Position numbers and translations under genes: made by a program
In this document: positions 3,928-4,740 of the stretch, in pieces
Numbering within the stretch: the stretch's first letter is position 1
Layout of the letters: every line of letters begins with the position of its first letter
The notes under the pieces: model-generated
What the model saw: the letters and a program-made list of their open reading frames with translations, nothing else
Told to the model about the DNA's origin: nothing
The model's database searches: none
From: an uncultured Verrucomicrobiota bacterium
Lineage (GTDB): Bacteria; Verrucomicrobiota; Verrucomicrobiia; Opitutales; LL51
Assembly: GCA_947174645.1 (NCBI GenBank)
Contig: CAMWJR010000001.1
Coordinates: 1-30,568 of the forward strand
Direction: 5' to 3'
Length of the DNA: 30,568 nt

Positions 3928-4740
3928 TTAACTAATATGAATATTGCACGTTTGTGGGACAATTGATTGATAGTGACCGCCCCGGCCATCGCCTCGGTAA
4001 AAAATCGGTATAGGATCTTCTTCTGTCTGAAAATTTCCCTTGTAAGTGTGAGTGATAATTTTTCGTAATCCCTTCTGAAATTCCTCTTTTTTCACGAGAA
4101 TATCGAAACCAATGACCGGTGCGAGAAAAACCGTTAGCGGTGAATCGAGCTCCAATCGCCCCTGTTCGAGCTTTCTTAAAAACTGATTCCAATCGGTATT
4201 ATTGAGATCCTCTTCCTTTTTCTCCGTATCATTCGCGATCAAGGTTGCGATCTCTTCTAATGCTTCGGTATCTTCTGGCGTCCGATCTTGTTTTCCTCGA
4301 ACATAGGCGATACGGTCCGAGAGCCGTTTTAGCAATGCCAAAACTTCCGACTTTTTGACGTAAATATCACGCGCACCATGCTGTTCGGCAATTTTTTTGA
4401 CGACAAGTACCGCCCAAAACCCGCAAAGACCATCGCCCGGTACATTGTACAGCCGAAATCCCGGAGGAACAAGCACCGTGGCGTCTTTTTTCGGAACGGC
4501 GGCGATCTGGCCTAATTGGGGAGGAATGACGTACTTCGAATCTTTGGCGACGCTAGGTTGCCGCGATGCCAAAGTCTTGATTGTTCGTATCGTTTGCGCA
4601 AGTTGTTGATTCGCTTTTTTGGCCGACACCAGTAGCTGTCGCCTTGCATTCTGGATCCGTACCATGTCTGCAGAACTTCCCTCTACCGTGCCAACAGCTC
4701 CCAAAAGTAGGCACGACCATACCCCCATCACCTTAACCAT
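3928..4740 (-). CDS. Secreted OTU-like cysteine protease (putative deubiquitinase), copy 2
   Basis: Cys box YNVPGDGLCGFWAVL (Asp103, Cys106; Cys codon 4423-4425) and His box IFYRGDGRGGHYQSI (His256; codon 3973-3975). Signal-peptide-like MVKVMGVWSCLLLGAVGTVEG. Confidence 0.8.
   Translation of the reverse strand: MVKVMGVWSCLLLGAVGTVEGSSADMVRIQNARRQLLVSAKKANQQLAQTIRTIKTLASRQPSVAKDSKYVIPPQLGQIAAVPKKDATVLVPPGFRLYNVPGDGLCGFWAVLVVKKIAEQHGARDIYVKKSEVLALLKRLSDRIAYVRGKQDRTPEDTEALEEIATLIANDTEKKEEDLNNTDWNQFLRKLEQGRLELDSPLTVFLAPVIGFDILVKKEEFQKGLRKIITHTYKGNFQTEEDPIPIFYRGDGRGGHYQSIVPQTCNIHIS

Follow-up and report, generated by a model that had tools for sequence, protein, structure and literature searches.

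A divergent, leader-bearing OTU-fold cysteine protease conserved in small-genome Puniceicoccales as a candidate host-directed deubiquitinase

Introduction

Among bacteria, OTU deubiquitinases have been described in Chlamydiae, Legionella, Rickettsiales and a small number of other groups, and are taken as markers of intimate host manipulation. Here we describe an OTU-like cysteine protease gene, referred to as OTU copy 2 (copy 2 hereafter), carried on a stretch of 30,568 nucleotides (the window; contig CAMWJR010000001.1 of assembly GCA_947174645.1, positions 1 to 30,568) from an uncultured bacterium of the Verrucomicrobiota, a phylum for which our literature search found no paper on OTU effectors. 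The bacterial OTU effectors described so far are established deubiquitinases (PMC7396840, PMC13720258), and the usual threading of the OTU active site is Cys ... His-aromatic-Asp/Asn/Glu (PMC7396840).

The best structural match to copy 2 is wMelOTU from Wolbachia pipientis wMel (PDB 6W9O/6W9R; Schubert et al. 2020, PMC7396840), which superimposes on the predicted model with Z 13.5-13.8 over 139-144 aligned residues (root-mean-square deviation 2.7-3.2 Å). Both are compact, pared-down OTU domains with the Cys ... His-aromatic order, and both come from a small-genome endosymbiont, a lifestyle that is probable rather than observed for the bacterium carrying copy 2. Sequence identity between them is 10-11%. 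wMelOTU has the full catalytic triad and a conserved Trp123 that holds the Gly-Gly tail of ubiquitin (PMC7396840), whereas copy 2 has a Gln two residues after the catalytic His (His+2), at a position that varies in its family, and an L-D-S-P motif. Copy 2 further differs in its phylum (Verrucomicrobiota rather than Alphaproteobacteria) and in possessing an N-terminal Sec-type leader followed by a basic linker.

Next in structural likeness are the eukaryotic enzymes OTUD3 (4BOU), OTUD1 (4BOP) and yeast Otu2 (7PL7), with Z 12.5-13.4 over 137-144 aligned residues and up to 19% identity, which share the domain size of copy 2 and, like it, have the catalytic Cys and His about 150 residues apart; unlike copy 2, they are cytosolic and detected by the Pfam model PF02338, whereas copy 2 goes undetected and has a bacterial export leader. 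Closer in phylogeny are ChlaOTU (Chlamydia pneumoniae/caviae) and SnOTU (Simkania negevensis, PDB 8CMR; PMC13720258), which belong to host-associated members of the PVC superphylum and, like copy 2, combine an OTU domain with an N-terminal hydrophobic element. SnOTU matches copy 2 with Z 9.4-9.6. ChlaOTU is an effector of the type III secretion system (T3SS), and SnOTU is membrane-anchored and specific for M1 chains (PMC13720258), whereas the hydrophobic core of copy 2 is only about 13 residues long and reads as a cleavable leader. The Legionella enzymes LotA, LotB/Ceg23, LotC/Lem27 and LotD/Ceg7 are OTU-fold effectors encoded by several paralogues per genome, as here, but are more distant (Z 6.7-8.5); they are Dot/Icm substrates of the type IV secretion system (T4SS) with extended helical insertions, in contrast to the compact, Sec-leader-bearing copy 2. 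Finally, sister OTU proteins from small genomes of the same order, Puniceicoccales (loci L143, L144, L147, L148), share with copy 2 the His box H-aromatic-Q-A-I/L-V/I (followed by Pro in L143 and L144). They are 570-700 aa long and have their OTU domain, which reaches the Pfam threshold, towards the C-terminus, whereas proteins of the copy 2 family measure 240-510 aa and fall below all Pfam thresholds.

Results

A conserved gene with intact Cys and His boxes

The open reading frame (ORF) list has a 270-aa frame on the minus strand at exactly the interval of the original prediction, positions 3928-4740, and the translation gives a 100% self-match with zero internal stops. Other ORFs within this interval, on either strand, are short ones overlapping copy 2, and Rfam, repeat, promoter and terminator scans around the gene returned tRNAs only. 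Asp103, Cys106 and His256 also lie where they had been placed, in the motifs VPGDGLCGFWAV and GGHYQSI, both read from the sequence; their codons are 4432-4434, 4423-4425 and 3973-3975, respectively, and His256 is followed by Tyr257 and then, at the usual D/N/E position, by Gln258. The Cys box is unchanged in 9/9 relatives and in about 30 diverged relatives, across which the G-H-Y of the His box is likewise invariant. Since the two boxes are invariant in some 30 relatives and align box on box with OTU proteins that Pfam recognizes, they are not a chance resemblance. Comparison of the whole gene with two orthologues yielded nonsynonymous to synonymous rate ratios (dN/dS) of 0.04-0.11, which shows copy 2 to be under purifying selection.

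The catalytic domain is predicted to adopt an OTU fold

A model of copy 2 was built with AlphaFold2 (AF2) on nine sequences and is a prediction, not a solved structure. Residues 89-270 are modelled with a predicted local distance difference test (pLDDT) mostly above 90; Cys106 falls in the opening turn of helix 106-120. Strand 255-262 has His256 at its beginning and is preceded by strand 244-250, the segment that had earlier been picked out as IPIFY. Both residues occupy the positions of the OTU catalytic residues. When this model was compared with the PDB by Foldseek, the top 50 matches were all OTU domains (OTUD5, nairovirus vOTU, OTUD3, OTUD1, wMelOTU, Otu2, OTUB2), and realignment of the Foldseek matches with VIA-align gave Z scores of 13.8 for wMelOTU, 13.4 for OTUD3, 12.7 for Otu2 and 12.5 for OTUD1. 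An exhaustive VIA-align scan of 48,161 PDB representatives, independent of Foldseek, placed OTU or OTU-like proteases at all of ranks 1-35 (Z 13.5 to 4.0); the first non-OTU chain, at Z 3.9, matched the N-terminal helix alone, and the nearest other papain-like enzyme was staphopain at Z 3.6. No chain with an NlpC/P60 or CHAP fold reached Z 4 in that scan, nor did either family give a Pfam match. Matches among the fold clusters of AFDB are likewise mostly OTU or otubain, with names that include "Ubiquitin thioesterase OTU" and "OTU domain-containing", and a search of the ESM Atlas starting from the Atlas's own model retrieved mostly OTU or otubain clusters with TM scores by query of 0.5-0.73. 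The C-terminal domain of copy 2, as modelled, has the alpha/beta fold of OTU proteases, in which the His belongs to a central beta-sheet and the Cys to a helical lobe.

Profile comparison connects this fold to proteins that Pfam recognizes. We aligned the copy 2 family (A2) with Pfam-matching or near-threshold OTU proteins of sister lineages (A3), and hhalign returned a probability of 98.1% and an E-value of 1.4e-13 over 142 aligned columns, in which the Cys boxes coincide, as do the His boxes. The Cys box of copy 2 was aligned with the D-G-N-C of Pfam-positive OTUs and its His box with N-H-F-Q-A-I of the sister-lineage OTUs, whose His boxes (N-H-F-Q-A-I-I-P, N-H-W-Q-A-L-V-P, I-H-F-Q-A-I-V) come close to the G-H-Y-Q-A/S-I-I/V-P of the copy 2 family. 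Homology of this family to OTU proteases is therefore backed by profiles as well as by fold, since the boxes fall in register with those of Pfam-positive OTUs. One weak match of the family, P0055, itself passes the Pfam OTU threshold. Searches of the PDB by phmmer and with a hmmsearch profile yielded no significant match to copy 2; the best sequence-only matches, caspase-7 p11 (E 0.18) and USP34 (E 1.1), were discarded as not significant.

PF02338 detects OTU domains in 5 of 301 genomes of the order (4 above the cut-off), all of 0.8-1.4 Mb. Genomes G039, G071, G119, G228 and G238 (loci L143-L148; 0.8-1.4 Mb) encode large proteins, in open frames mostly of 570-700 aa, with a Pfam-detectable C-terminal OTU domain, and most of these proteins share a H-aromatic-Gln His box. 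OTU proteases appear to recur among Puniceicoccales with small genomes.

A conserved Sec-type leader followed by a basic linker

The predicted leader of copy 2 combines one Lys with a 13-residue hydrophobic core (Kyte-Doolittle 11-mer maximum 1.98) and ends in V-E-G, replaced by I-E-A or I-E-G in orthologues, before a polar stretch. Its shape reads as that of a cleavable Sec leader and not of a membrane anchor. A lipoprotein was considered and rejected, Cys10 being preceded by V-W-S after only nine residues, which makes a poor lipobox. Two close orthologues (P0002 and P0003; 71-74% identity) are called as 245-aa proteins from the equivalent of Met26. In both orthologous contigs (L002 and L003), however, the 25 codons upstream of the called starts are open and encode nearly the same peptide as the leader of copy 2, with a dN/dS of about 0.18 for this stretch (window versus each orthologue). 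The start at Met26 was rejected on the grounds that both contigs keep these codons open and preserve the peptide they encode, and the true start of copy 2 is therefore Met1 (or Met5). An N-terminal hydrophobic segment is present in about 27 of 41 family representatives; several of the others begin inside an apparent leader, suggesting that most leader-less representatives are clipped gene calls.

Residues 26-88 of the linker comprise 7 Lys, 5 Arg, 8 Gln, 2 Asp and zero Glu, for a net charge of +10, and the linker reaches a maximum hydrophobic moment of 0.56. AF2 draws a helix at residues 23-59 with pLDDT <50. The length and charge of this region vary widely across the family (15-443 aa; -26 to +31), although many genus mates retain a short basic W-K/R-K/R stretch directly behind the leader. 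The linker is probably flexible or amphipathic. Of the N-terminal features that the original prediction had proposed, the signal peptide is upheld by its hydrophobic core, by the conservation of the leader in L002 and L003 and by the presence of one in most relatives. The Lys/Arg/Gln-rich segment stands on composition and net charge, while the helix of about 50 aa assigned to it corresponds in the model to the low-confidence one at residues 23-59.

An old resident gene of small genomes

The genome to which the window belongs spans 764,889 bases in 87 contigs, is 90% complete and has a GC content of 47.8%. In the sample of 301 genomes of the order, the family profile matched 27, all of 0.6-1.1 Mb, and no family match was found among the larger genomes listed (1.3-5.1 Mb) of those searched. 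Strong full-length matches are confined to the genus of the window (12/13 other genomes), and a profile of the catalytic domain searched against 1.84 billion representatives retrieved only 51 clusters. The related loci in a species-level genome collection are all from metagenome-assembled genomes (MAGs) of Puniceicoccales. The stretch itself is present in only two sequencing runs, both of the DNA type and labelled gut metagenome.

In 8 of 10 related MAG loci, copy 2 directly follows the genes for a Mur ligase and MtaB. Its identity in related loci is 33-41%, against 48-58% for the Mur ligase and MtaB, and faster divergence than that of housekeeping neighbours is a pattern typical of effector-like genes. 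GC content and GC content at third codon positions (GC3) of copy 2 equal those of neighbouring genes, and no signs of repeats or an integrase were found near it. Recent horizontal transfer or a mobile element is not supported, given the compositional match, the genus-wide synteny and the lack of nearby repeats or integrase. Because of this synteny and of the GC and GC3 shared with its neighbours, copy 2 is best read as an old, vertically inherited and fast-evolving resident gene.

The number of OTU-like genes in this islet varies: L002 has four (270, 316, 331 and 426 aa) and the window two, with no remnants of the two extra L002 paralogues in the window, which either lost them or never had them. 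The extra leader-bearing OTU-like paralogues (L002 7724-8674 and 8816-9811; G003:C1:735309-736460) are 316 and 331 aa long and lie, in L002, between copy 2 and tRNA-Gln. In the 331-aa paralogue, a Cys replaces the Asp of the Cys box (P-G-C-G-M-C), and a long acidic insert rich in Ser, Glu and Asp precedes the His box.

Neighbouring genes

Copy 2 is separated by 37 bases from the MtaB-type radical-SAM gene (4778-6079) upstream of it and is followed, in this order, by tRNA-Gln, a 237-aa orphan gene, tRNA-Arg, a second OTU-like gene (copy 1) and glgB; the features of the islet are collected in Table 1. The similarity of copy 1 to copy 2 is limited to the region of the Cys box (BLASTP E 1e-5). Its orthologue in L002 is 426 aa long and has the His box G-N-H-F-E-P-L. 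On the other side of copy 2, a 721-aa orphan (7551-9716, minus strand) lies between the Mur ligase gene and a pseudouridine synthase gene; it belongs to no Pfam or NCBIfam family, and its position is conserved in L002 and L003 as a protein of 678-680 aa.

The 237-aa neighbour was compared with loci L152, L153, L154, L155, L005 and L002, and its homologues in genus mates, with identity down to 19-28%, all keep a Cys-rich C-a-a-X end (GCCLLL, GCCDML, NCCNIS). CaaX boxes are the target of eukaryotic prenyltransferases, and the conserved end is suggestive of an encounter between the Sec-leader proteins of the islet and cytoplasmic enzymes of a host. That the neighbour keeps its CaaX end through deep divergence is the strongest indirect argument here for exposure of islet proteins to a host.

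Table 1. Coordinates of copy 2, its parts and neighbouring features in the window
Feature	Position	Strand	Description and basis
Whole coding sequence of the OTU-like protease (OTU copy 2)	3928..4740	-	270 codons + stop; ORF list
Sec-type signal peptide (predicted)	4678..4740	-	Residues 1-21; Lys3 n-region, hydrophobic core 7-19, V-E-G before the predicted cut
Basic Lys/Arg/Gln-rich linker	4477..4677	-	Residues 22-88; composition and hydrophobic moment
OTU-fold catalytic domain	3931..4476	-	Residues 89-270; AF2, structure searches and hhalign
Cys box N-V-P-G-D-G-L-C-G-F-W-A	4411..4446	-	Residues 99-110; read directly from sequence
Near-invariant L-D-S-P-L loop	4135..4149	-	Residues 198-202, including Asp199 and Pro201
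His box G-G-H-Y-Q-S-I	3961..3981	-	Residues 254-260
tRNA-Gln(CTG)	3609..3682	-	Between copy 2 and the CaaX protein; ARAGORN and Rfam
237-aa leader-bearing helical protein ending C-P-C-L-L-I (CaaX-type box)	2816..3529	-	ORF list
OTU-like paralogue (copy 1)	1355..2569	-	404 aa; Cys box V-P-G-D-G-N-C-F-F-W; sequence

Host context and secretion genes

Ankyrin repeats are a eukaryote-like domain typical of host-interacting bacteria, and the genome of the window contains ankyrin-repeat ORFs (C13:5414-5665, C17:5629-6722 and C25:4066-4269; open frames of 595, 248, 456 and 243 aa). Neither a ubiquitin-family gene nor a U-box was matched in this genome, although the U-box search matched no control genome either. 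Secretion genes are thus retained despite its very small size, and they include three secretins. One of these, of 891 aa, has an N0 domain of the SPI-1 T3SS type and is listed together with a FHIPEP export-gate gene (C49:2082-4064, L142; C15:688-3363, L141). The two further secretins, one of which has a GspD-type N0 domain and adjoins a PilN-like gene, are grouped with three T2SSE-family ATPases of 562, 384 and 425 aa (C2:26324-28993, L140; C30:6645-8666, L139; and C82, C73 and C13). No flagellin was found in this genome. The combination of a FHIPEP gate and a SPI-1-type secretin without flagellin points to a non-flagellar T3SS in a verrucomicrobial symbiont. Nothing ties copy 2 to the FHIPEP/secretin system or to any other particular system.

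The bacterium seems to live as a symbiont inside the cells of a gut eukaryote, and its small genome, the reduced genomes of the other carriers and the CaaX neighbour fit a host-directed exported protein. The name codes of related MAGs resemble those of samples from lower-termite guts, which may be their source. The "Nucleococcus cluster" of termite guts, which comprises intranuclear and cytoplasmic symbionts of protists, has MAGs of about 1 Mb and falls in this part of the Verrucomicrobia (PMC8204192), and we infer a link between it and the bacterium of the window.

Discussion

The evidence presented here is best accounted for by copy 2 acting as a Sec-exported, host-directed deubiquitinase, to which we assign a probability of about 0.62. 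Its overall architecture of export leader, basic linker and OTU Cys/His domain, which the original prediction had outlined, agrees with the fold, profile and comparative evidence; catalytic activity, ubiquitin as the substrate, delivery beyond the periplasm across the outer membrane and any role of the linker are what this reading adds by inference. In the mechanism we propose, a cleavable Sec signal peptide (approximately residues 1-21) would direct passage across the inner membrane and leave a basic linker (residues 22-88) attached to a compact cysteine protease domain of putative OTU fold (residues 89-270), in which Cys106, at the N-terminus of the catalytic helix, would serve as the nucleophile, and His256, followed by the aromatic Tyr257, as the general base. 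After a second export step, the enzyme may reach the cytoplasm or nucleoplasm of the host, where it would cut the isopeptide linkage through which the C-terminus of ubiquitin or of a ubiquitin-like modifier is joined to host proteins, or remove ubiquitin with which the symbiont has been tagged, and ubiquitin-dependent clearance or signalling might thereby be blunted.

Several observations weigh against this reading. Neither copy 2 nor eight relatives matched PF02338 or PF10275 at E-values up to 1 or any Pfam family above noise, PF02338 retrieved nothing from a six-frame translation of the genome of the window at E-values up to 10, and no NCBIfam model matches copy 2. The third triad position, where a D/N/E residue is expected, is Gln258 in copy 2 and Q, R, W or G across the family. 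At the level of the profile alignment, the Trp123 clamp of wMelOTU appears to have no obvious counterpart in the L-D-S-P loop of copy 2. Known bacterial deubiquitinase effectors mostly use T3SS or T4SS signals and not Sec leaders. Nor is a type II secretion system (T2SS) established as the route that would follow Sec export, as the three T2SSE-family ATPases and the PilN-like neighbour would fit a type IV pilus equally well. A eukaryotic host is deduced from genome size, "gut metagenome" labels and MAG titles rather than observed, and deubiquitinase activity would be a prediction from the modelled fold. To these we add that copy 2, with its conserved Sec-type leader, does not conform to the picture of an effector delivered by a T3SS or T4SS without a cleavable Sec leader.

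The Pfam-positive OTUs of sister lineages also have Gln at His+2, and, because this position is Gln or variable while Cys and His never change, proteins of the copy 2 family probably work as a Cys-His dyad or take their acid from elsewhere. The columns of the L-D-S-P-L loop are invariant in alignments A1 and A2, and a set of 30 sequences shows a single exception to the Asp; hhalign pairs the loop with L-G-G-E-H of the first Pfam-positive template (I-W-L-G-G there), whose Trp has no aromatic counterpart here. That the near-invariant Asp199 might substitute for the absent triad acid is a speculation. The terms "near-canonical" and "classical" that had been applied to copy 2 are overstated in view of the lack of Pfam and NCBIfam detection, the variable His+2 residue and the apparent replacement of the Trp-Gly-Gly loop by L-D-S-P; a divergent OTU with intact Cys and His is the accurate label.

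The alternative that survives best, although we consider it improbable, is that the host receives copy 2 as an active OTU-fold protease whose substrate is other than ubiquitin, such as NEDD8, SUMO, ATG8/ATG12, a URM1/UFM1-type modifier or a specific host protein. Its fold neighbours include nairovirus OTUs as well as OTU-like processing proteases of tymoviruses and arteriviruses; nairovirus OTUs also cleave ISG15, and some viral OTU-like proteases process polyproteins. The highly variable S1 surface of OTU domains (PMC7396840) would be compatible with such a switch of substrate, as would the fact that neither the Gly-Gly clamp residue nor the D/N/E residue of the triad is conserved in the copy 2 family. 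Nearly all characterized cellular and bacterial OTU domains act on ubiquitin, however (PMC7396840, PMC13720258), and the closest structural matches, wMelOTU, OTUD3, OTUD1 and Otu2, are ubiquitin-specific.

More doubtful still is a periplasmic or envelope cysteine peptidase acting on the bacterium's own substrates, be they cell wall, lipoproteins or secreted pro-proteins. A Sec leader alone shows only export to the periplasm, a T2SS is indistinguishable from a type IV pilus in the genome of the window, and peptidoglycan had also been named as a possible substrate in the original prediction. Against this, no wall-hydrolase fold was retrieved at Z >=4, and the nearest other papain-like enzyme is the staphopain of Z 3.6. 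The family is found only in genomes of 0.6-1.1 Mb and not in the larger ones listed, close relatives differ in their number of paralogues (2 versus 4) and copy 2 diverges more quickly than the two housekeeping genes beside it, while the conserved CaaX box of the 237-aa protein points to host exposure.

On a par with it in likelihood, we consider a more specific scenario in which copy 2 is a genus-wide, vertically inherited effector used by the verrucomicrobial "Nucleococcus cluster", whose members live as symbionts in the nucleus or cytoplasm of gut flagellates. Here a two-step, Sec-dependent release would deliver an enzyme whose active site is re-wired, either to a Cys-His dyad or to draw its acid from the Asp199 loop rather than from His+2, and that the linker may tether to nucleic acid or chromatin, and ubiquitin marks, for example on histones, would be erased in the host nucleus. 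Were this unlikely scenario true, these would be the first deubiquitinase effectors described for the Verrucomicrobiota and for parabasalid or oxymonad hosts.

A catalytically dead OTU-fold binder of ubiquitin or of another host factor, acting as a pseudoenzyme or decoy, is the least credible explanation. In its favour, the family does not conserve the third residue of the triad, L-D-S-P apparently stands in place of the canonical Trp loop, and the inactive OTU-fold protein FAM105A is among the structural matches (Z 10.1). Pseudoenzymes usually lose their nucleophile, however, whereas every full-length relative retains both Cys106 and His256 at overall identities of 33-41% and in variable surroundings, and dN/dS is low.

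The Sec-exported, host-directed deubiquitinase that we favour differs from known cases in belonging to a Pfam-invisible subfamily, in its Sec leader and basic linker, in its non-canonical third triad position, and in a new phylum and a new likely type of host. The copy 2 family occupies one chromosomal site across a genus of Puniceicoccales with genomes of 0.6-1.1 Mb and has an OTU fold, as predicted, even though curated models miss it; current annotation leaves genes of this type "hypothetical". If active on ubiquitin, these proteins would extend this class of effectors to the Verrucomicrobiota and to symbionts of gut protists, offer a handle on how uncultured symbionts persist in their hosts and provide a natural test of how many features of the OTU active site an enzyme can do without.

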